DNA of 44,866 bases from a virus (IMGVR_UViG_2579778842_000011:1-44866); one strand, 5' to 3'; shown: positions 3,261-27,608, numbered from the stretch's first letter. Made by a program: numbers and translations. Notes: generated from the letters alone by a model not told the origin.

Positions 3261-3905
3261 ATGAGCAGAATTATCACCACCACCGTGTATACACTGCATG
3301 AGCTATCCTCCACCGCACAGGAAAAAGCCCGCGACTGGTACCGTCAGCATCATGCTGACAGCAACTGGTATGAAAACGTGTATGAAGACTTCAGGGAGGT
3401 CTGTGGCATTTTCGGAATTGACCTCCGCCAGCGCGTTTTCCGGCTCAGCAACGGCAGGTTTATGGAAGAGCCGTGCATCTGGTTCAGCGGATTCTGCGGC
3501 CAGGGAGACGGAGCCTGTTTTGAAGGACGCTGGCACTGGCAGCCAGCGGCACCCCGGAAAATCAGGGAATATGCCCCGCAGAACCGTGAGCTTCATCGTA
3601 TCTCGGATGCCCTGCAGGTGGTGCAGAAACGTAACTTCTGGCAACTGCAGACTGAAATCCACCACCGGGGACGCGACTGCCATCCGTACAGCATGGATAT
3701 CACGGTTACCCGGAACAGTCCGACTGGTCAGGCTATGACAACCGATGCGGAAGCCGCAGTCAGCGAAGCCCTGCGCGACCTGGCCTTCTGGTTGTACCGT
3801 CAACTGGAAAACGAGTACGACTGGCTGACCTCAGACGCCGCTGTGGATGAGGCCCTTCTCATCAACGAATACACCTTCACCGAAGCCGGTCTGCGCGCCG
3901 GCTGA
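3261..3905 (+). CDS. Hypothetical protein (island accessory gene)
   Basis: 214 aa ORF in same orientation between DUF987 and the antitoxin; no recognisable motif. Confidence 0.4.
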   Translation: MSRIITTTVYTLHELSSTAQEKARDWYRQHHADSNWYENVYEDFREVCGIFGIDLRQRVFRLSNGRFMEEPCIWFSGFCGQGDGACFEGRWHWQPAAPRKIREYAPQNRELHRISDALQVVQKRNFWQLQTEIHHRGRDCHPYSMDITVTRNSPTGQAMTTDAEAAVSEALRDLAFWLYRQLENEYDWLTSDAAVDEALLINEYTFTEAGLRAG

Positions 3906-3954
3906 CTCGTCATCGTTAAACTATCATTCACCGATTTTCTGTAAGGATTTTATC

Positions 3955-4323
3955 GTGTCAGACTCACTCCATGAAACAAATTATCCCGACGATAACAACG
4001 ACCGCCCCTGGTGGGGGCTACCCTGCACCGTGACGCCCTGTTTTGGGGCACGTCTGGTGCAGGAGGGTAACCGGTTGCATTACCTTGCCGACCGTGCCGG
4101 TATCAGAGGCCGGTTCAGCGACGCGGATGCGTACCACCTGGACCAGGCCCTTCCGCTGCTGATGAAACAACTGGAGCTCATGCTCACCAGCGGTGAACTG
4201 AATCCCCGCCATCAGCATACCGTCACGCTGTATGCCAGAGGGCTGACCTGCAAAGCCGATACCCTCAGCAGTTGTGGTTACGTTTATCTGGCTGTTTATC
4301 CGACGCCCAAAATGAAAAATTAA
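3955..4323 (+). CDS. Type IV antitoxin, CbeA/YeeU/YfjZ/YafW family
   Basis: GTG start at 3955 after AAGGA; ...DRPWWGLPCTVTPCFGARLVQEGNRLHYLADRAGI...VYLAVYPTP matches recalled YeeU; immediately upstream of the toxin gene. Confidence 0.85.
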   Translation: MSDSLHETNYPDDNNDRPWWGLPCTVTPCFGARLVQEGNRLHYLADRAGIRGRFSDADAYHLDQALPLLMKQLELMLTSGELNPRHQHTVTLYARGLTCKADTLSSCGYVYLAVYPTPKMKN

Positions 4324-6559: not shown

Positions 6560-6647
6560 TGGCGGTGAGGGGGGGATTCGAACCCCCGATACGTTGCCGT
6601 ATACACACTTTCCAGGCGTGCTCCTTCAGCCACTCGGACACCTCACC
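6560..6647 (-). tRNA. serX: tRNA-Ser (anticodon GGA)
   Basis: Reverse complement reads GGTGAGGTGTCCGAGTGG...CCTGGAAAG...GGTTCGAATCCCCCCCTCACCGCCA: 88 nt, long variable arm, GGA anticodon loop, CCA end; adjacent to ghrA as at the serX locus. Confidence 0.9.
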
Positions 6648-18069: not shown

Positions 18070-19581
18070 ATGTTTAATCTTTTTCGACGCAAAAAGGCGG
18101 TAGAAACTCCAGTTAAAACTAATCACCGCCAGCAACAACCAAAAATTTTCATCGACAAATCTATAGAAAAATACCAGAGATCTTTGGCGACTCGTAGTTT
18201 AGGTCTGGTGGGTGATCGTATTGATGGATCACTTCAACAAGACACCATTACAGGAACCTTCAATAAGGCTCTCAAATCGAACGGTAAGCGCCTTTATGAT
18301 CAGGGTCGTACTCTGGCCTTAAACACTTCCGTAGGCAGTCGCTACACGCAATACATAACCGATATGGTGGTAGCTACTGGCCTAGATCCGAAGCCGTCAG
18401 TTGTTAAATCAAACGGCAAACTTGATAGCGCACTGAATAAGCAGATCGAGAATGCTTTCTGGAAGTGGGCGCAGAATGCTAAACGCTTCTCTCGTAACGG
18501 TCGTTTTAACTTCCGTGAACTGCTGGTGATGGCTGAACGTGAACGCGTTATGGGTGGTGAGTGCTTCATAGTTTTAACCAAAGAAAACAATGAGTTAAAT
18601 GTTTCTATCCTGTCTGCTGATAAGTGCGACTGGTCGCTAAACCGTGAAGTAAGCAAAGACCGTGCGATATATCAAGGTGTGGAGTATGACGTAGAGACGA
18701 TGAAGCCCGTAGCATACTGGTTTCGTAAAATCAACCTACTGACTCAGACCTACACTGGTGATAACTATCGCGTAGATGCATCGCAAGTATGCCATTATTA
18801 TCAACCACTTACAGCCGAATCCCTGCGTGGTGTGACTGACTTCCTGCCAGTGATTAAGGATATCGCACATCAAGACGCATTCCGCGAAACTGCGATCGTC
18901 CAGAAACGTATTGCAGCTAGCTCGATGGGCTTTATCGAACGTCCGAAAGATTCTGGTGACGATTTTGATACTGGTGAAGAGGATGAACAATATCAAGCGC
19001 CGGAAGTAGTACAGGATTTTGCACCAGGTACTATTCAGGAATTACCGGAAGGGGCAACGATCAAGAGCATCCAGGCGACGCAAAGCGGTGATGACTTTAA
19101 CAGCTTCAATGATGCGATGTTTACTAGCGTATCAATGGGTTTAGGCGTGTTTAAACAGGGCTTAACGGGAGATTGTTCACAGATCAACTACTCAGCCGCA
19201 CGTTTTGGTGAACTACTTCAACGTAACCGCGTTAAAGCACTTCAAAACAAATTAATTGAAACAGTGGTATTGCCAATTTTCGAAGCGTATCTACGCCATT
19301 ATTCCGCGCGTGGTATTGTTCCGATTCGTATTACTGCAATTCCACATATTATCGATAATACAACTATTATTCGTCCGCGTTTCGAGTCTGTCGATGTTAT
19401 TAAAGACGTAAACGCTGATATTGCTTTAATTGATAAAGGACTTAAATCACGTACTGCCGTTATTCTTGAACGTGGTGATGATCCTGAAAAAGTATTCTCA
19501 GAGATTCAAGCCGAAAAGAGCGCACTAAATATTATCGTTAATGGCGAGGGTGAAGAAAAAAATTCCCCAGCCGATCCCTAA
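18070..19581 (+). CDS. Portal protein (lambda gpB-like)
   Basis: 503 aa; position after terminase; VFKQGLTGDCSQINYSAARF region resembles recalled lambda B. Confidence 0.8.
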   Translation: MFNLFRRKKAVETPVKTNHRQQQPKIFIDKSIEKYQRSLATRSLGLVGDRIDGSLQQDTITGTFNKALKSNGKRLYDQGRTLALNTSVGSRYTQYITDMVVATGLDPKPSVVKSNGKLDSALNKQIENAFWKWAQNAKRFSRNGRFNFRELLVMAERERVMGGECFIVLTKENNELNVSILSADKCDWSLNREVSKDRAIYQGVEYDVETMKPVAYWFRKINLLTQTYTGDNYRVDASQVCHYYQPLTAESLRGVTDFLPVIKDIAHQDAFRETAIVQKRIAASSMGFIERPKDSGDDFDTGEEDEQYQAPEVVQDFAPGTIQELPEGATIKSIQATQSGDDFNSFNDAMFTSVSMGLGVFKQGLTGDCSQINYSAARFGELLQRNRVKALQNKLIETVVLPIFEAYLRHYSARGIVPIRITAIPHIIDNTTIIRPRFESVDVIKDVNADIALIDKGLKSRTAVILERGDDPEKVFSEIQAEKSALNIIVNGEGEEKNSPADP

Positions 19582-19626
19582 TAACCAACGGGGGCGCAAT
19601 GCCCCCAATTAATTAAAGGTGATTAA

Positions 19627-21630
19627 ATGCTTAAATTTCGCCGCGATCTTAACGGTTACGGTGGAGTTATTAACGAAGGGCATAACGATCAATACGAATT
19701 TGAAATTGCTTTCTCAAGTACACAGCCTTATCAGCGCCAATTTTGGGATGAGCAAAATCAAGAAATGGTGGTATTAGATGAAATTCTGGTACATACACCG
19801 GAAGCGGTTGATCTGTCTCGTCTGAATAATAACGCTCCGTTGCTGTTCAATCATAATTTCGATAATCATATTGGTGTCGTTTGTAACGCTCGAATCGATG
19901 CGGATAACGTAGGTCGTGCTCTGGTTAAATTCTCTAAGCATGGCACTTTGGCTAATGATATTCGCAATAAAGTCATTGAAGGTACGATGGAAAAAATATC
20001 GGTCGGCTATGACATTAAAGAGTATCACATCGACTACGCTAAATCGCAACTCATTGTTTCTAAATGGATTCCGCACGAAATTTCGTGGGTCACGGTCCCG
20101 GCGGACGATTCGGTCGGTTTAAATCGCTCTCTAAATACTATCACAGTTAATTTGGGGGCTAAACGCGATATGACTAAAGAACAAATCGAAGAAATCAAAG
20201 AAGAACAAGAATCCGCTCAGGTTGAAGAAACTCCGGTAGAAGAAAATAAAGAACCGGAAGTTGAAGAAACTCAAGAGCGCCAAGTTGAAGAGAATAAAGA
20301 AGATGAAAATCTCGAAGACGGAAAAGACGCTAAACATCCTGAAAGTGTTGATGATGATAGTTCAACTGTTCGGGAAGAAGAAGAAGTAAAAGAAGAACGT
20401 GAAGCCGCTCCGGTTGAAGAAGAAAAAATCGAAGAAGTGGCTGAACGTTCCGAAGAAGACGAATTAGAAATTCGCGAAATTGCACGCGAACTAAATATTG
20501 ATGACTCTGAATTAGCACGCGCATTGGCAATTAAAGACATGACGCCGGAAGCATTCCGCACTAAGGCGCTAAATAACATTACCAATGTTCAACGTAATAA
20601 CGAACAAATTAAGGACTCTAAAATGGAAAAAACTTTCGATCTTAATAACGTAATCCGCTCCCTGGTAGATGGCGACGTGCTCGGCGCTAACGAAGCTGAA
20701 TATTCCGCAATGGCTGCTACTGCAACTATGCAGCGTGGTCGTGCTGCTCGCGGTGGCTCTGTATTCGTTCCGGCTGCTGCTATGCGTGCTGCTTCTGCTG
20801 GTAACACCAAAGCCGACCTGACCGCTATCACTGACGAAAAACTGATGACTGAATCCTACATCGAAATGCTGATGCCGGAATCTGTTCTGGGTCGTCTGGG
20901 TGTGACTGTTTACAGTGGCTTGAACTCCCCGACCGCTATTCCAAAAATGACTAAATCCAGCGTTGACGCTTTCGGCTTCGTTGATGAAAACGGTGCTGCA
21001 CCGGAAAGCAAAGCTGAATTTGCGAACGTGAAACTGTCTCCTAAGACGTTTGCTGGTGGGAACCCGATCAGCAGAGCGAGCCTAAAAACCGTACCCGGCA
21101 TCGCTTCCCTGATCACTGATCACATTAACAAAGCTGTTCGCATCAAACTGGAACAACTGATTCTGTCTGATAAAGCTAACGACCGTGGTCCGGCTGGTCT
21201 GGTTAAGCAACTGGTAGACGCTAACCGCGTTACCAAGAAAGCTGCTTTCTCTTACAAAGACTTCCTGAAAGAAATTGCAGCACTGACCGACGCTGGCGTT
21301 CCTGCTCAGGCGATCAAGTTTGCGATGAGCGGTGCAACTGCTGCTGAACTGGAATCTACCCTGAAAGATAACGGCGTTTCCGGTTATATCATCGAAAACG
21401 GCAAACTGGCTGGTTACGAAGTAGTTACTTCTGGCGTTATTCCGGCAGACCACATCGTTCTGGGTGACTTCTCCGGTATTACCATCGGTGAGTGGGGCGG
21501 TCTGGAACTGGATATGGATCTAACTACATACCGTGACCGTGGTGCGGTAGTGCCTCGTATCTTTGTAGATTTGGACTACGTTGTAGCACAGCCGGAAGCT
21601 CTGAAAGTTCTGAAAATTGGCGAAGAGTGA
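19627..21630 (+). CDS. Prohead protease - acidic linker/scaffold - major capsid protein fusion (HK97-like)
   Basis: 667 aa; N-terminal ~170 aa with prohead-protease-like motifs (LLFNHNFDNHIGVV, ISWVTVPADDS); E/K-rich linker; C-terminal ~330 aa capsid-like; ends at UGA 21628-21630. Confidence 0.7.
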   Translation: MLKFRRDLNGYGGVINEGHNDQYEFEIAFSSTQPYQRQFWDEQNQEMVVLDEILVHTPEAVDLSRLNNNAPLLFNHNFDNHIGVVCNARIDADNVGRALVKFSKHGTLANDIRNKVIEGTMEKISVGYDIKEYHIDYAKSQLIVSKWIPHEISWVTVPADDSVGLNRSLNTITVNLGAKRDMTKEQIEEIKEEQESAQVEETPVEENKEPEVEETQERQVEENKEDENLEDGKDAKHPESVDDDSSTVREEEEVKEEREAAPVEEEKIEEVAERSEEDELEIREIARELNIDDSELARALAIKDMTPEAFRTKALNNITNVQRNNEQIKDSKMEKTFDLNNVIRSLVDGDVLGANEAEYSAMAATATMQRGRAARGGSVFVPAAAMRAASAGNTKADLTAITDEKLMTESYIEMLMPESVLGRLGVTVYSGLNSPTAIPKMTKSSVDAFGFVDENGAAPESKAEFANVKLSPKTFAGGNPISRASLKTVPGIASLITDHINKAVRIKLEQLILSDKANDRGPAGLVKQLVDANRVTKKAAFSYKDFLKEIAALTDAGVPAQAIKFAMSGATAAELESTLKDNGVSGYIIENGKLAGYEVVTSGVIPADHIVLGDFSGITIGEWGGLELDMDLTTYRDRGAVVPRIFVDLDYVVAQPEALKVLKIGEE

Positions 21631-21717
21631 AATAACGAAGAATTGCCGGAAGAAATTCCGGTAGTTACGGCGAAAGCCACAGCTAAAAAGGTGGGACGTC
21701 CACCGAAAGCAAAATAA
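21631..21717 (+). other. In-frame 28-codon extension downstream of the capsid UGA stop (putative readthrough product)
   Basis: NNEELPEEIPVVTAKATAKKVGRPPKAK then TAA; shares NEELP and VVTAKATAK with the extension after the major tail gene. Confidence 0.45.
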
Positions 21718-21723
21718 TAATTA

Positions 21724-21749
21724 GCCCTGCCTAACGGTGGGGCTTTTTT
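21724..21749 (+). terminator. Rho-independent terminator after the capsid gene
   Basis: GCCCTGCC-TAAC-GGTGGGGC (two G-U pairs) followed by TTTTTT. Confidence 0.7.
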
Positions 21750-21780
21750 GTATGTAAATACTCCATAAAGGGGGGTAACT

Positions 21781-22071
21781 ATGTTCAAATTATCAGAATC
21801 ACAATTATCAAGAATGTTTAAAAGTGCTCCTGTATTTTCGGTGGAAGGTGGTAAATCAATTCGTGCTTATCATGAAATTACTACTACCGACGAACAAGGG
21901 GTAATGACAGAGACAGAATTTTTATTTTGTCGTGAGGGAGACTTAAAGCAGGGTGATATTGTCATTGTAGAAAATCAGCGTTTCAAAGTTCAATACGTTA
22001 AGCGCAATGGTGACAATACAACTGATTGCTTTATCACTCTGGCAGGGGGTACACATGCTCGCTACCGTTAA
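21781..22071 (+). CDS. Putative head completion / head-tail adaptor protein
   Basis: 96 aa; AAGGGGGG RBS; position after capsid gene. Confidence 0.4.
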   Translation: MFKLSESQLSRMFKSAPVFSVEGGKSIRAYHEITTTDEQGVMTETEFLFCREGDLKQGDIVIVENQRFKVQYVKRNGDNTTDCFITLAGGTHARYR

Positions 22072-22477
22072 TAACATGCCGAGACTGAAAATCAAACGCG
22101 CCTTGCAAGATATTATCGAACAAGATTTAGGTCTGGCTTTAAACGTAGAACAAACTCAGCAAGGCTTTAGTGATGATGTGGTTTGTTGGATCACCGGAAT
22201 GAATGAGACTTACACTAGGGTCCGTGGTGGTAATGCAATGCAAGCTGAATGCGTTATCGAAATGCAATTATATTCTCAGATTCATGAAACCAAAATTCAT
22301 GAGGGTATTTGCCAGATAATCCAGATTCAGCCGGATAACCCACGTTTTAAAGATTTGGGCTTCTCTATTTCAGATATCACTCCAGTAGCTTCTAATACCG
22401 ATTATGACGATGATTCTAGTGATGGGGGTATCGTTGGGACACTTAGCCTTAAATTTTCTTATCTAGCGCGTTTTTAA
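22055..22477 (+). CDS. Putative head-tail joining protein
   Basis: ORF 22007..22477; ATG 22055 has GGGGG 5 nt upstream; overlaps end of previous gene; start uncertain (alternative 22076). Confidence 0.35.
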   Translation: MLATVNNMPRLKIKRALQDIIEQDLGLALNVEQTQQGFSDDVVCWITGMNETYTRVRGGNAMQAECVIEMQLYSQIHETKIHEGICQIIQIQPDNPRFKDLGFSISDITPVASNTDYDDDSSDGGIVGTLSLKFSYLARF

Positions 22478-22486
22478 GGGGTAATA

Positions 22487-23320
22487 ATGAATATTACACA
22501 AGATAACTTAGATATTTTCACTGGATCACATGTTGAAGTGTCGATCTCTAACCAGATAGACAATCAGGTCGACTTTTTCGATCCTAGCTTTAGTTCTATG
22601 GAGAACATCGCAGCATTCCCTACGCTAACCGAATCCACAGAGATAGAAACTCTGGAAGAGTACGATCAGGACGCTACGGGGAAACTTGCTGGTTATCGTA
22701 GACTGGAACCGACAACACTCACATTAAACCGTGTTCTTGACGATGAACATCAAGCAATGTTGATGAAAGCGGTAGAGGATAAAACACCTTTACGCTTCCG
22801 TATGTTCTATGTTGTGAACTCTGGCTATAGTGCTGCTAACACAGGGTACTTTTGTATATTCGATGCTTACGTCACATCACATAAAACCCGTGGTAGTGAT
22901 AACAAAGCTGTAACACTGGAATTTAAACTTGAACCAGATGGCGGGATTTTGGCAAGGGGTATTGCTACCGAAGGTAAGATCTTACGTCAGGGTGATTTTG
23001 GTATTGGTGCTGGTGTACATCCATTTACAGGGGGTATAGACGACACAGCATTAGCCGGAAACCGTTTCGTAACTTACAAGGGAACTGCTAGCGGCAATCC
23101 ATATTCAACCGACACAGCATTAATTCACCTTCAAGCTAATGAGCATGGCGCATGGCAATTAACCTGTAATACTTCTGGCGCACCGCGTTTACGTGTCCGA
23201 AATATTCAGGAAAACGGTCGTTCTGAATGGATCAAGGTATATTCCACCAATGAGAAACCGACACCTAGCGAAATTGGCGCAGTGGCTAAGACTGACCGGA
23301 TCGATTTCGGCGAATACTAA
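22487..23320 (+). CDS. Putative neck/tail-associated protein with fiber-like C-terminal motif
   Basis: 277 aa; C-terminal NEKPTPSEIGAVAKTD resembles DKPTPGEIGAYTKAE in the downstream fiber. Confidence 0.4.
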   Translation: MNITQDNLDIFTGSHVEVSISNQIDNQVDFFDPSFSSMENIAAFPTLTESTEIETLEEYDQDATGKLAGYRRLEPTTLTLNRVLDDEHQAMLMKAVEDKTPLRFRMFYVVNSGYSAANTGYFCIFDAYVTSHKTRGSDNKAVTLEFKLEPDGGILARGIATEGKILRQGDFGIGAGVHPFTGGIDDTALAGNRFVTYKGTASGNPYSTDTALIHLQANEHGAWQLTCNTSGAPRLRVRNIQENGRSEWIKVYSTNEKPTPSEIGAVAKTDRIDFGEY

Positions 23321-23399
23321 GGATTCTCCTACCTAAATAAAACATGAACGTTGGGAGGTTAACGCCTCCCTTATTCCTGTTTTATAGTGAGGTGATTCG

Positions 23400-26300
23400 A
23401 TGCAGTCGATCCAATTTAAACGCACACAAACGGCTGGTAAAAAACCAACGCCGGAACAATTATCACAGGGTGAAATCGCCTTACAACTGGCGGACCATGT
23501 GATTTACACCAAAGATAAAAATAATAACGTAGTCCAAATTAGTGTTTCTCCAGAAAAACACGCTGAACTGAATACGAAAGTAGACACCAACAAGGTCAAT
23601 ACAGATAAAGTCATTTCAGCAAATAAAACCGAAGCCGCTAATAATCTGGCTAGTGCTAAAGCTGAACTTAATCAGACTATCACTTCTACCCGTGATGCTC
23701 TCAATGCTTCAATCACTGCTGGCGACACCGCAGCCAACAAACGAATTGATGCTTTGACTACCACAGTAGGTAACAATAAAACCGAAGCGGCTAACGCTCT
23801 GGCGGCTGCTAAGACTGAACTGAATCAGACTATTACTTCAACCCGCGATACTATCAACGCAACAATTAACAAGAACAAGACAGATATTAATGCACGAGTT
23901 GATCAGACTAATACCAACGTTACTAACTTAACGAATAATATCGCAGCAAATAAATCAGCAATAGAAAAGACGGTAGCGGATAATAAGAAAGATGCGGACA
24001 CGAAGATCACCAATCTTACTAGTACGGTCTCTGCGAATAAGACATCCATTGAAAGAACTGTTGCAAATAACAAGGCCAGTGCCGATGCCGCAATTGCCGC
24101 AGCTAATCAGCGAATTGATTCTATTGAAGGTAGTGCCGATGCTGCTTACATCAAGAAGAATACCAACACTTACCATCACGGCTATCTGTTAACCAAAACA
24201 GCTAACTATTTGGAAGACCAGACAGCGAGAGATCTTAACTACTTTGGTGCTTTCCGTACCAATGGTCAAGATGGACTCATGGATCTAACTCTTAACGTTC
24301 CTCACTCTGCCGGCAAAGCGCACGGTCGCGGATTTACTTTCCGTTATGCGTCTGGTGGATCTCGTGTTGAAACCTATGGTTTTGATAGAGAAGGACAGAA
24401 GAACTTTAGCTATAAGATGTATCACGAAGGTGATAAGCCGACTCCTGGCGAAATCGGTGCATACACTAAAGCAGAAGTTGACAAGATGTTTGTTAAAAAC
24501 GTCACTATGTCTGTTCCTAATTCTAGCGAAAACGTATCTGCATATTTCAAATTGGCAACCGCAACAATTCCACAAAACGGGCGTAGTGTGTTTTTCCGTA
24601 TTCATGGTGGTAATGGTTACAACGTTACGGCATATGACCAAGTTGATGTAGTAGAAATTCTTCTCCGTAGTGGTAACGATAGACCTAAAGGACTTAACGT
24701 AGTTGCATATCGTCGAAATACCGTCAAAGATTTTGATGTATTTGCCGTCAATACATCCGGTGATAACTATGACATTTATGTGAAATATCAGCGTTACACT
24801 GATAACGTTATTGTTGAATTTGGTAAAAGTGTTTATGTTAATCTGACTGTTCACGATACACCGGAAGCCACGTTAATTAAACCTTCTGTTGGTGTTATTG
24901 ATGGGCGCATCATTACTCTATTCAATACAGAAAACAAACGAGGTGTGTTGAGTTTTGACGATAACCCACAAAATAGTTATGATATTGTTCACTTGAGTAA
25001 TGATAGGGGTACTGGACGAAAATATATTCGTAAATTCCGTAGCAACTATAACGAAATGATCTGGCATGAGACGGTTCAAGGTTCTACTTATCGACTCGCC
25101 ACGGGTAGTACAGATGCCCAGGAGATTCTATCCGTTGAATCTAGTAGCTCTATTGCTGGGACTCATAAAGGTAATATTCTTTCTGGTCGAATGATGTTGG
25201 GTGGCGGTAGTAATGTTATTACCTTGCGGCGTCCTGCTGGTCAATCCAACCATATTACGTTTCAAGATAATCGGACTGGATCTATTACCCGTCAAGGGTG
25301 GATCGGTTATGGTAATGCTGATACTAACGTTTTTGAATGGTATAGTGATGTAGGTGGCAGTTCTATTCGTCACCACATCGACGGACAGATCGAACTTGCA
25401 ACCGGTAACACAAAACGCGTTTATACTAACGCTCAATTCATCTCAATGAATAGCGACGCCTACCGTATGCTCTATGGTAATTATGGTGCATTCTGGCGTA
25501 ATGACGGCGTTAAAGTTTATCTTCTTTCTACTGCCGAAAATGATAAATTGGGCGGATGGAATACTTATCGTCCATTCATTTATGATTTAACTTCCGGCAA
25601 CGTTCAATTAGGCGGTGATGGTAACGAAGATGCATTAACGTTAGAACGTGCTTCTCGTGCCGCTCGCTTTAGTAATGACGTTTACATTAAGAAAGGGCAT
25701 TTGACTTTCGACGCTGGGCGATTAAATTCCCGCGATTATTTCCGGTTTAACCATTGGGGTGATAGCAATAACGGTCGCGATAACATCCTACAGATTGAAG
25801 ACAGTCAGGGCGCACATTTTATCACTGAACGTGCTATGGGTACTGGTAACATAACAACACGTTTTAGAGGCTTTGTACGTGTAGAATCTGGTGAAATTGC
25901 ATTTGATGCTAACCGTGGTTCTTCTTCGCAATTTAGTCTCCATACATGGGGTAACGAGCAACGCAAACAGGTTTTTGAATGTAAGGATGCTACAAGTTAT
26001 CACTGGTATACTGAACGTACTCAGGGTGGCACTGGACCTATTCTGTTCTCTATGGCGGGTAGTCTAAACGTTGCTAGCAATATCACAACAACTGGTGCTG
26101 ATATTACGTTTAAACGCGCTGGCAATAAGCACATCTGGTTTAGAGATCCAAACGGTTTAGAGTTGGGCTTGATGTATTGCGATGACGCTGGTGTTATTCG
26201 CTTCCGTGGTGAGAAACAAACCGAAGTCTGGAAATTCGGCGGTAAGATGATTCACCTTGAAACGGGCACTGTATCCGGTGGCGGTAATGGTCTTATTCGT

Positions 26301-26918
26301 GGTAGCGTTGCTGGTGGTAGTTGGGCTAGCTGGCGTGATCGTGCTTCTGGTATTCAGGTCGACTGTCAACAATCAACCGATTCCGCTCATAACGTATGGA
26401 AAGCAACCCATCAAGGTAAATATCATATCGCAGCAATGGGTGTACATGTTCCTAGCGGTACTATCGGTAATGCTATGGTTCAACTTCATGTTCATGATAC
26501 CAACTTTATCTTTAACGCTGCTGGTGATTTTACCGCAGGTCGTAACGGTAGCTTTAACGATGTTTACATTCGCTCTGACTCTCGTCTGAAAATTAACAAG
26601 GAAGAATTACAGGACGGTGCATTAGAGAAAGTAAACTCCTTGAAAGTCTACACCTACGATAAAGTTAAATCTCTTTCTGATGACACGGTAATTAAACGCG
26701 AAGTCGGTATTATTGCTCAGGATCTGGAAGAAGTATTGCCGGAAGCAGTAGGTATTCAATCCACCGAAGATCCAGAAAATCCAGAAGCAATTAAGACGAT
26801 TTCTAACTCCGCTGTTAATGCCTTGATTATTAAAGCTATTCAGGAAATGGACGCCAAATATAAAGCCCAGATCGAAGCATTACAGAAAGAAATTGCCGAA
26901 CTCAAAGCAACTAAATAA
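23400..26918 (+). CDS. Tail fiber protein with C-terminal intramolecular chaperone (peptidase S74-like) domain
   Basis: 1172 aa; repetitive N-terminal Ala/Asn/Thr-rich segment; C-terminal SDSRLKINKEELQDGALEKVNSLKVYTYDK...coiled coil typical of self-cleaving fiber chaperone domains. Confidence 0.75.
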   Translation: MQSIQFKRTQTAGKKPTPEQLSQGEIALQLADHVIYTKDKNNNVVQISVSPEKHAELNTKVDTNKVNTDKVISANKTEAANNLASAKAELNQTITSTRDALNASITAGDTAANKRIDALTTTVGNNKTEAANALAAAKTELNQTITSTRDTINATINKNKTDINARVDQTNTNVTNLTNNIAANKSAIEKTVADNKKDADTKITNLTSTVSANKTSIERTVANNKASADAAIAAANQRIDSIEGSADAAYIKKNTNTYHHGYLLTKTANYLEDQTARDLNYFGAFRTNGQDGLMDLTLNVPHSAGKAHGRGFTFRYASGGSRVETYGFDREGQKNFSYKMYHEGDKPTPGEIGAYTKAEVDKMFVKNVTMSVPNSSENVSAYFKLATATIPQNGRSVFFRIHGGNGYNVTAYDQVDVVEILLRSGNDRPKGLNVVAYRRNTVKDFDVFAVNTSGDNYDIYVKYQRYTDNVIVEFGKSVYVNLTVHDTPEATLIKPSVGVIDGRIITLFNTENKRGVLSFDDNPQNSYDIVHLSNDRGTGRKYIRKFRSNYNEMIWHETVQGSTYRLATGSTDAQEILSVESSSSIAGTHKGNILSGRMMLGGGSNVITLRRPAGQSNHITFQDNRTGSITRQGWIGYGNADTNVFEWYSDVGGSSIRHHIDGQIELATGNTKRVYTNAQFISMNSDAYRMLYGNYGAFWRNDGVKVYLLSTAENDKLGGWNTYRPFIYDLTSGNVQLGGDGNEDALTLERASRAARFSNDVYIKKGHLTFDAGRLNSRDYFRFNHWGDSNNGRDNILQIEDSQGAHFITERAMGTGNITTRFRGFVRVESGEIAFDANRGSSSQFSLHTWGNEQRKQVFECKDATSYHWYTERTQGGTGPILFSMAGSLNVASNITTTGADITFKRAGNKHIWFRDPNGLELGLMYCDDAGVIRFRGEKQTEVWKFGGKMIHLETGTVSGGGNGLIRGSVAGGSWASWRDRASGIQVDCQQSTDSAHNVWKATHQGKYHIAAMGVHVPSGTIGNAMVQLHVHDTNFIFNAAGDFTAGRNGSFNDVYIRSDSRLKINKEELQDGALEKVNSLKVYTYDKVKSLSDDTVIKREVGIIAQDLEEVLPEAVGIQSTEDPENPEAIKTISNSAVNALIIKAIQEMDAKYKAQIEALQKEIAELKATK

Positions 26919-26973
26919 TAAAAGTCGGGGGACTAGTTCCCCCGTAATAACAATTTAATTAAGGGGTAATTCT

Positions 26974-27450
26974 ATGTCTCAGCAATTTAAAGATATTTTT
27001 ACTGGTGGTCTGGTAAGTCTGTTCTATCACGCCGATACCACTAACACCGCTCTCAACCATGAGGGCTATGAAGAAATTAAAGAGTGCGCCGGATTCCCGG
27101 AAACTGGTATCGAACGCGGTACTGTAGAAGTTAAATCCTTCTCTTCTCAGTATAACCGTAAACTGGTAGGGAAGCTGAACGTTCCTGATCTGACTCTGAC
27201 CGTTAACTACATCCCAGGCGATGCGGTACATGAAAAACTGATCAAAGCTGCCGAAGATGGTACTCGAATCCAGATTAAAGTAGAGTATTACGTATCAGCG
27301 GATAAGCAGACTGGTATTCGCACCGCTTTCAACGGCTTCATTTCTAAAGTTGCTATGAACGGTGGCGATGAAGAAGTGGTAACTAAAGAGTTTACCTTTG
27401 CAGTGGACGGCAAACCGCTGAAACAGGAAATCTTCAATACTGCCGGATGA
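26974..27450 (+). CDS. Major tail (tube) protein
   Basis: 158 aa; AAGGGGTAA RBS; position before chaperone pair and tape measure; strong terminator after it; ends at UGA 27448-27450. Confidence 0.55.
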   Translation: MSQQFKDIFTGGLVSLFYHADTTNTALNHEGYEEIKECAGFPETGIERGTVEVKSFSSQYNRKLVGKLNVPDLTLTVNYIPGDAVHEKLIKAAEDGTRIQIKVEYYVSADKQTGIRTAFNGFISKVAMNGGDEEVVTKEFTFAVDGKPLKQEIFNTAG

Positions 27451-27576
27451 ACTAACGAAGAACTTCCTTTAATAGAACCGGAACCACAGCCGGAACATGA
27501 AGCGGTGGTGATTCCAGAATTAGAGGTTGTTACGGCGAAAGCCACAGCTAAACGAAGCCGCAAGGCTAAAGATTAA
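27451..27576 (+). other. In-frame 41-codon extension downstream of the major tail UGA stop (putative readthrough product)
   Basis: TNEELPLIEPEPQPEHEAVVIPELEVVTAKATAKRSRKAKD then TAA; 24-nt block GTTACGGCGAAAGCCACAGCTAAA identical to that after the capsid gene. Confidence 0.45.
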
Positions 27577-27582
27577 TTATAA

Positions 27583-27608
27583 GCCCTGCCTTAATGGTGG
27601 GGCTTTTT
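27583..27608 (+). terminator. Rho-independent terminator after the major tail gene
   Basis: GCCCTGCC-TTAAT-GGTGGGGC followed by TTTTT; same stem sequence as the terminator at 21724. Confidence 0.7.

Follow-up and report, generated by a model that had tools for sequence, protein, structure and literature searches.

Candidate UGA readthrough extensions on the tail tube and major capsid proteins of an Escherichia coli prophage

To our knowledge, the RNA phage Qbeta is the only coliphage for which stop codon readthrough is a textbook feature, and the known minor capsid and tail long forms of tailed phages come from frameshifting. In its RefSeq record, the Qbeta coat gene ends in UAC UGA ACU, and this stop is annotated as leaky, with about 5% readthrough. 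In E. coli, UGA with an A at position +4 is reported to be the context most misread by tRNA-Trp, and UAA-U the strongest stop (PMC5289835); UGA readthrough reflects the competition between Trp-tRNA(Trp) and release factor 2 (RF2), and varies with cyclic AMP (cAMP), with temperature and between cells (PMC10570021). Frameshifting in capsid genes gives minority extended subunits in the virions of T7 (10A/10B), T3, Lactobacillus phage A2 and the Listeria phages A118, A500 and PSA (cps, tsh) (Atkins et al. 2016, PMC5009743), and in the Listeria phages the major tail gene is likewise recoded at its 3' end (PMC5009743). Here we analysed a 44,866-nucleotide stretch of viral DNA (IMGVR_UViG_2579778842_000011:1-44866, referred to as the window), a siphovirus-type E. 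coli prophage whose genes for the tail tube protein (TTP) and the major capsid protein (MCP) both end in UGA-A followed by a related in-frame extension. Judging from the comparison of related prophages, we estimate the probability at about 0.75 that these extensions are translated by UGA readthrough, giving minor extended TTP and MCP subunits.

Two gene ends with a related in-frame extension

The gene ends in the window, from the capsid gene to the tail tube gene, comprised the following features:

19627-21630, plus strand: prohead protease-scaffold-MCP fusion gene, 667 aa (Pfam PF04586 and PF05065)
21628-21630, plus strand: MCP stop TGA, then AAT
21631-21720, plus strand: MCP in-frame extension, 28 codons (NNEELPEEIPVVTAKATAKKVGRPPKAK; 21631-21714) and TAA TAA (21715-21720)
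21664-21687, plus strand: MCP copy of the 24-nt core GTTACGGCGAAAGCCACAGCTAAA
21723-21744, plus strand: hairpin of the intrinsic terminator AGCCCTGCC-TAAC-GGTGGGGCT, with a T run to 21749
26974-27450, plus strand: TTP gene, 158 aa, lambda gpV-like tube domain (Pfam PF16460 and PF16461)
27448-27450, plus strand: TTP stop TGA, then A at 27451
27448-27453, plus strand: proposed leaky stop signal UGA-ACU (stop and next codon)
27451-27576, plus strand: TTP in-frame extension, 41 sense codons (TNEELPLIEPEPQPEHEAVVIPELEVVTAKATAKRSRKAKD; 27451-27573) and TAA
27529-27552, plus strand: 24-nt core GTTACGGCGAAAGCCACAGCTAAA, encoding VTAKATAK, identical to 21664-21687
27574-27576, plus strand: TAA of the TTP extension, with a second in-frame TAA at 27580-27582
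27581-27605, plus strand: hairpin of the intrinsic terminator AAGCCCTGCC-TTAAT-GGTGGGGCTT, with a T run to 27610

The 24-nt core was present in exactly two copies in the window and was matched in none of 100 shuffles, even allowing 3 mismatches. The TTP and MCP extensions of the window also showed synonymous differences: TTG/CTT for Leu, CCG/CCT for Pro, GTA/GTT for Val, and AAA GCA AAA / AAG GCT AAA. The two terminators were the first (TTP) and second (MCP) ranked terminator-like sites within 19000-32000; that of TTP has a 10-bp stem with two G-U pairs, a 5-nt loop and a T run, and is specific to the plus strand because of the two G-U pairs. In the structural module of the window, the TGA-A stop was found only in the MCP and TTP genes, every other listed gene stopping with TAA. 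With Trp inserted at the UGA, the predicted readthrough junctions would be EIFNTAG-W-TNEELPLIEPEPQPEHEAVVIPELEVVTAK for TTP and VLKIGEE-W-NNEELPEEIPVVTAK for MCP.

The original prediction, made from the window, had described both gene ends, and this description was accurate in every detail. It had also considered two genes in frame with a related peptide to be unlikely by chance; from the window alone, open frames of 41 and 28 codons were only mildly unlikely (P of about 0.10 and 0.20, respectively), but with the comparative data described below the coincidence was far beyond chance.

Conservation of the stop signal, the frame and the peptide

The comparative set included about 115 related loci, which after deduplication gave 42 TTP and 44 MCP distinct gene ends with an extension. 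The TTP region was present in 20 of 5426 complete E. coli genomes (megablast, 87-98% identity) and the MCP module in 54 of the 5426; further loci were obtained by pattern and protein scans of IMG/VR, and the contigs encoding more distant TTP homologues were from E. coli, Salmonella and Hafniaceae. Genome-contig scans, with the nucleotide core pattern and with the TTP alignment, gave no match and were uninformative on spread to the reference genomes of other species. RefSeq labels the TTP gene "phage tail tube protein" in the 20 E. coli genomes and annotates nothing within the extension stretches of these 20 regions.

The stop was TGA followed by AAT or ACT in 86 of the 86 distinct module-bearing gene ends (42 TTP and 44 MCP), and TGA-ACT in 42 of the 42 TTP ends. 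The codon before it varied: GGA, GGT, GCT and TCT in TTP, and GAA, GAG and GAC in addition when all module-bearing ends were taken together. Conversion of TGA to TAA needs a single transition, which was seen in none of the 86. Of 30 distinct related gene ends lacking the module, 29 stopped with TAA and one with TGA-T. Both kinds of end were found in the same prophages (L022-L025 and L099-L110), in which the MCP gene had TGA-A plus the extension and the TTP gene, 57-72% identical, stopped with TAA TAA directly at the terminator; TGA-A is therefore a property of the gene end and not of a genome-wide stop preference. At another locus (L019), the entire TTP extension open reading frame (ORF) was kept, the terminator and the downstream gene were different and the gp38-like gene was missing, so the reading frame is separable from the terminator. 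The original prediction had named, as the case that would speak against it, homologues that keep the terminator and lose the frame; this was tested and the reverse was found, with the frame, the UGA and the +4 A in all 86 ends and the ORF retained in L019. Its proposal of UGA readthrough, with a related peptide on both late proteins, is supported by this comparison.

Forty distinct extension alleles were compared: 17 from TTP (108, 117, 120 and 123 nt) and 23 from MCP (84, 99, 126, 129, 132 and 135 nt). Stops interrupted frames +1 and +2 in every one of the 40, and frame 0 in none. All seven length-changing events were multiples of three (P of about 5e-4), and 1- and 2-nt indels were present just downstream, in the non-coding terminator loop, T run and spacer. 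The ratio of nonsynonymous to synonymous differences (pN/pS) in the extension was 0.41 for TTP and 0.69 for MCP (0.21 and 0.49, respectively, in the last 30 codons of the genes). Synonymous divergence in the extension reached about 0.17-0.20 which, together with the seven indels, was accompanied by no frameshift and no stop. At the level of comparative sequence, these data demonstrate coding constraint on the extension, a strict link with UGA-A and independence from the terminator. Minus-strand ORFs overlapping the extensions (27288-27563 and 21576-21788) were considered and discarded, as they were open in some alleles only.

The encoded peptide had two parts in every allele: a variable, acidic, Pro/Glu-rich spacer (net charge -4 to -8, Pro plus Glu 44-55%), followed by a conserved basic tip (V[TK]AKATAK[KR]..[RK]K.K, net charge +5 or +6). 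In the TTP of the window, the spacer is TNEELPLIEPEPQPEHEAVVIPELEV (net -8) and the tip VTAKATAKRSRKAKD (net +5). Spacer alleles such as NNEELPEEIP, TPVEPSEPSPDLGEENLIPEPEEESQ and TNEELPLIEPEPQPEHEAVVIPELE were acidic and Pro-rich throughout, and ended in the same basic motif. In the AlphaFold2 (AF2) model, the TTP core was confident, nearly all of residues 159-198 had a predicted local distance difference test (pLDDT) score below 50, and these residues had no secondary structure; the extension is predicted to be intrinsically disordered.

Proposed readthrough and alternative explanations

The extension is in the zero frame, and plain readthrough would therefore be the simplest route to it. 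We infer that most ribosomes would stop at the UGA of the TTP and MCP genes, and that a small fraction would decode UGA-A by means of the host Trp-tRNA(Trp), in competition with RF2, and would continue for 41 (TTP) or 28 (MCP) codons to the strong TAA just before the terminator. The hexamer UGA-ACU is common to the Qbeta coat stop, the TTP of the window and the long MCP alleles, and the level of readthrough is taken, by analogy with Qbeta, as a few percent. The minor, C-terminally extended subunits would co-assemble with the major forms, and virions would carry a few identical flexible whiskers on tail and head: at Qbeta-like efficiency, the head might bear of the order of ten extended subunits and the tail about as many.

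As regards the position of the whiskers, the best Protein Data Bank (PDB) matches of the AF2 TTP core were tube-domain chains of lambda gpV (8k36_A and 7t2e_A, 154-156 residues), and the full-length gpV chain (7t4f_A, 245 residues) runs on into a C-terminal domain, the external, immunoglobulin (Ig)-like one. The TTP extension would emerge outside the tail tube, since its start coincides with the start of the gpV external domain. The capsid extension would also be exposed on the surface, if it behaves like those that frameshifting adds in T7 and T3 (PMC5009743). The most likely role for the whiskers might be weak electrostatic contact with a polyanionic surface (lipopolysaccharide, capsule, mucus or DNA) or the docking of a common partner protein.

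Several observations weigh against this proposal. The "distinct" allele counts overstate independence, given the phylogenetic relatedness and mosaic structure of the sequences. With a pN/pS of 0.4-0.7, purifying selection on the extension is only moderate. The 24-nt core was nearly invariant among alleles, third codon positions included, and this third-position conservation could stem from a function at the nucleotide level, or from a recent transfer between the copies, and not from protein constraint. A natural variant in which a sense codon replaces the UGA was not found, and no cultured phage of this lineage was detected when the TTP region was used as a DNA query (megablast and blastn) against the phage collection. 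The function of the whiskers is speculative and is the least supported step of the argument: the KKVGRPPKAK allele resembled the AT-hook (PF02178) below threshold (E = 0.078, 13.3 bits, for a cut-off of 17.4), but the resemblance was confined to this allele and the GRP core of the AT-hook was absent from the TTP alleles (RSRKAKD and RGRKAKN). In Pfam, the TTP extension allele had no match at all, and neither tested allele reached the threshold of a family.

One protein, P0001 (198 aa; L021, ENA ERZ27280761), was considered as a natural fusion and rejected as an artefact of a metagenome gene caller, which had read the tail tube TGA as W; the artefact happens to equal the proposed readthrough product. 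The capsid query for sense-codon fusions returned just 4 partial proteins.

A hairpin with an 11-bp stem and a GAAA loop (AAUUGCCGGAA-GAAA-UUCCGGUAGUU, 21641-21666) was observed 10 nt past the capsid UGA in the short capsid allele (free energy of -19.8 kcal/mol, z = -4.7), and the sole variant seen in it, TTG to TTA, changes a G-U pair to an A-U pair. Its distance from the UGA would suit a recoding stimulator, and the tail tube site has no counterpart (structure near the TTP stop was not significant, z = -1.5); a readthrough-stimulating RNA structure common to both sites was therefore discarded. In long capsid alleles (L003, L006, L008, L016 and others), alignment reading alone suggested another hairpin, TTCCCCC-GATTT-GGGGGAA, about 26 nt past the TGA, with a constant 7-bp stem and a variable loop (GATTT, GATTC or AAATC).

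Of the alternative explanations, the one that survives best, although we consider it unlikely, is an untranslated element of RNA or DNA, linked to the terminator (a cassette duplicated behind the two late genes with the highest expression and serving 3' stability, processing or recombination), in which the open frame would be incidental. The core and the terminator hairpin are nearly identical in nucleotides between copies and alleles, a small hairpin, GGC-GAAA-GCC, lies within the core, and the 11-bp hairpin described above is present in the short capsid allele. Exchange between the copies is also indicated: the MCP tail allele RGRKPKE was always paired with the nearly identical TTP allele RGRKAKN, other pairs assorting freely, and this pairing, together with the invariance of the core, fits inter-copy exchange and mosaic recombination among prophages. 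To this extent, the suggestion of the original prediction that the module is also a recombination cassette finds some support. However, an untranslated element would leave unexplained why seven of seven length changes keep the frame next to a region with 1- and 2-nt indels, why frame 0 alone is open in all alleles, why divergent spacers keep the same acidic, Pro-rich composition and why ends with the module have UGA-A and ends without it UAA. In addition, the ORF and the terminator come apart in L019, and the TTP site lacks significant RNA structure near the stop.

Slightly less probable again would be an evolutionary remnant: an ancestral constitutive tail, cut by a nonsense mutation, whose dead 3' piece was spread by recombination and has not decayed. 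Short basic capsid ends are indeed constitutive in Salmonella and Hafnia relatives (...EASKAK* and ...AEAKSKD*); a Hafnia-type locus (L028) has TAA, followed by in-frame AKSKD*, where two others (L029 and L113) have a sense codon; and the moderate selection on the extension would agree with a relic. But the same accident would be needed in two genes, followed by retention of TGA-A in 86 sequences with substantially different capsid C-terminal domains; the divergence and indels given above came with zero frameshifts or stops; and decay should sometimes replace TGA by TAA or TAG, a change seen in 0 of 86. The L028 arrangement (...QPAGV TAA AKSKD*, versus ...QPAGAEAKSKD* in L029 and L113) may itself be read as a nonsense mutation or as another stop-plus-tail arrangement.

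A mainly regulatory role, in which readthrough ribosomes reaching the TAA, 5-8 nt ahead of the stem, would mask the 5' arm of the terminator and couple some transcriptional readthrough to translational readthrough, we regard as improbable. The gap between the end of the extension ORF and the stem is 4 nt for TTP (27576 to 27581) and 2-5 nt for MCP (21717/21720 to 21723), and both sites lie at expected drops in expression (capsid to head completion; tail tube to the gp38-like and chaperone genes). Nevertheless, the main TAA of relatives without the extension is equally near the terminator, so this geometry is not special to readthrough, and a spacer with such a role would need no conserved peptide motif, composition or disordered-linker design. 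A regulatory effect is compatible with the structural reading and could be a side effect of the structural role.

There is very little to recommend a separate small protein made by internal initiation or termination-reinitiation: ATG (GG-ATG-A) and GTG (GA-GTG-A) overlap the two stops and some alleles have an in-frame GTG or TTG, but the overlapping ATG and GTG are off-frame and end after 2 codons (ATG AAC TAA; GTG AAA TAA), no in-frame start is conserved among the extension alleles and none is preceded by a Shine-Dalgarno sequence, and the frame is open from the first codon past the UGA, which a separate ORF would not need. Least credible of all is a dedicated decoding of UGA (selenocysteine with a selenocysteine insertion sequence (SECIS), a phage suppressor tRNA or a reassigned code): although the stable hairpin of the short capsid allele starts at a distance from the UGA (10 nt) that resembles bacterial SECIS elements, and a metagenome gene caller rendered TGA as W, no SECIS-like hairpin is conserved because the sequence past the UGA is wholly different between alleles (and the TTP site is not significantly structured), the hairpin has a GAAA loop and lacks a bulge, the window contains no suppressor tRNA (ARAGORN found only a tRNA-Ser(GGA) and a doubtful tRNA-Gln), and TGA closes other ORFs of the window, whose genes read normally in code 11.

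Neighbouring genes, module evolution and comparison with known systems

The other genes and tRNA calls considered in the window were:

6560-6647, minus strand: tRNA-Ser(GGA) (ARAGORN)
18070-19581: lambda-family portal gene
22242-22332, minus strand: 91-nt "tRNA-Gln" call (ARAGORN), inside a head gene and on the opposite strand
23400-26918: long tail fibre gene, 1172 aa, with Gp34_trimer and S74 chaperone domains
27624-28130: T4 gp38-like adhesin gene (PF21721), directly behind the tail tube terminator
28173-28481 and 28511-28852: tail chaperone pair (G/T type), the second ORF being Phage_tail_T

A tape measure gene was also present. The tRNA-Ser(GGA), towards the left of the window, may mark the site of integration, and the "tRNA-Gln" call is probably a false positive. 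In the 667-aa MCP ORF, a prohead protease (S78) is fused with a highly acidic linker that resembles a scaffold (EEQESAQVEETPVEENKEPEVEE...) and with a capsid domain of the HK97 family. In this lambda-like siphovirus module, the 1172-aa fibre gene separates the head genes from the tail genes, and the gp38-like gene was also missing from relatives whose TTP has no extension. The second chaperone ORF occupies the -1 frame compared with the first, which is what the conserved G/GT frameshift would lead one to expect; RefSeq lists the two as separate hypothetical proteins.

A protein search of the phage collection gave only distant relatives, the best of which, Escherichia phage DCP80 (L077, PQ671644.1; 43-45% identity), was without the module. 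This phage is filed under Straboviridae yet has a siphovirus-like module, and at 3790-3960 its capsid TAA is followed by a hairpin, a small ORF (MSLGAEALDAAPVKKSKSASG*, acidic then basic) and a terminator; the small ORF may be an analogue of the tail with another mode of expression. In another locus (L072, IMGVR_UViG_2630968595_000002, plus strand, 1789-2631), an unrelated 280-aa capsid-like protein with a weak PF13252 match ends constitutively in ...AKAEVTAKATAKK (...AEVTAKATAKK) directly before the terminator, with the same tip and without recoding. From the constitutive ends of Salmonella, Hafnia and L072, a basic, A/K/T-rich capsid C-terminal tip may therefore be more general, and in the E. 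coli lineage this tip may have come to sit on a spacer that follows a leaky stop.

No report of readthrough in capsid or tail genes of tailed phages was found in the literature covered, which was incomplete and is no proof of absence. The chances appear about even that the window holds the first natural programmed stop codon readthrough in virion genes of a tailed double-stranded DNA (dsDNA) phage: a portable module of UGA-A, disordered spacer, basic tip and terminator on the capsid and TTP genes, exchanged between them, which would display a single peptide sub-stoichiometrically over the virion at a dose set by host physiology, since UGA readthrough depends on the tRNA-Trp/RF2 balance, on cAMP, on temperature and on cell-to-cell noise. 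If so, virions from different cells would differ in surface properties; tailed-phage biology would gain a new recoding mechanism and annotation pipelines a class of coding sequence that they overlook; and head and tail would offer phage engineering a natural site for low-copy display. That the translational fidelity state of the host tunes virion surface composition is a testable idea, and a simple genome-wide screen is suggested: UGA-A stops with a conserved zero-frame ORF behind structural genes.

Among known systems, TonB has a Pro-rich spacer in which (Glu-Pro)n is followed by (Lys-Pro)n, and an acidic Glu/Pro stretch followed by a basic run is suggestive of an extended spacer; unlike in TonB, the stretch described here is much shorter and in another context, with no evidence of homology. 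As for lambda gpV, the TTP extension begins where the tube domain ends and likely has an accessory, surface-contact role; the gpV domain is folded and present on every subunit without recoding, whereas the extension would be unfolded and present on a fraction of subunits.

The frameshift long forms share with this module the 3'-end recoding of capsid and tail genes (the tail gene of A2 is likewise recoded) and the same apparent purpose. Those systems use -1 or +1 shifts at slippery sites and many of them add Ig-like domains, whereas the module described here would use a leaky UGA in the zero frame to add a short, disordered, acidic-basic peptide, the same on both genes; as it involves neither a change of frame nor a folded Ig-like domain, it falls outside the frameshift group.

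The closest likeness is to the A1 protein of Qbeta (Qubevirus): the same host species, the same UGA type and hexamer, and a zero-frame extension that opens with a Pro-rich linker. The A1 product is a minor virion subunit, as the extended subunits proposed here would be. Qbeta is a single-stranded RNA levivirus with an extension of about 196 codons past the coat stop (record coordinates); here, by contrast, the host of the module is a dsDNA tailed prophage, the extension has 28-45 residues and is predicted to be disordered, and the same module stands on two genes.

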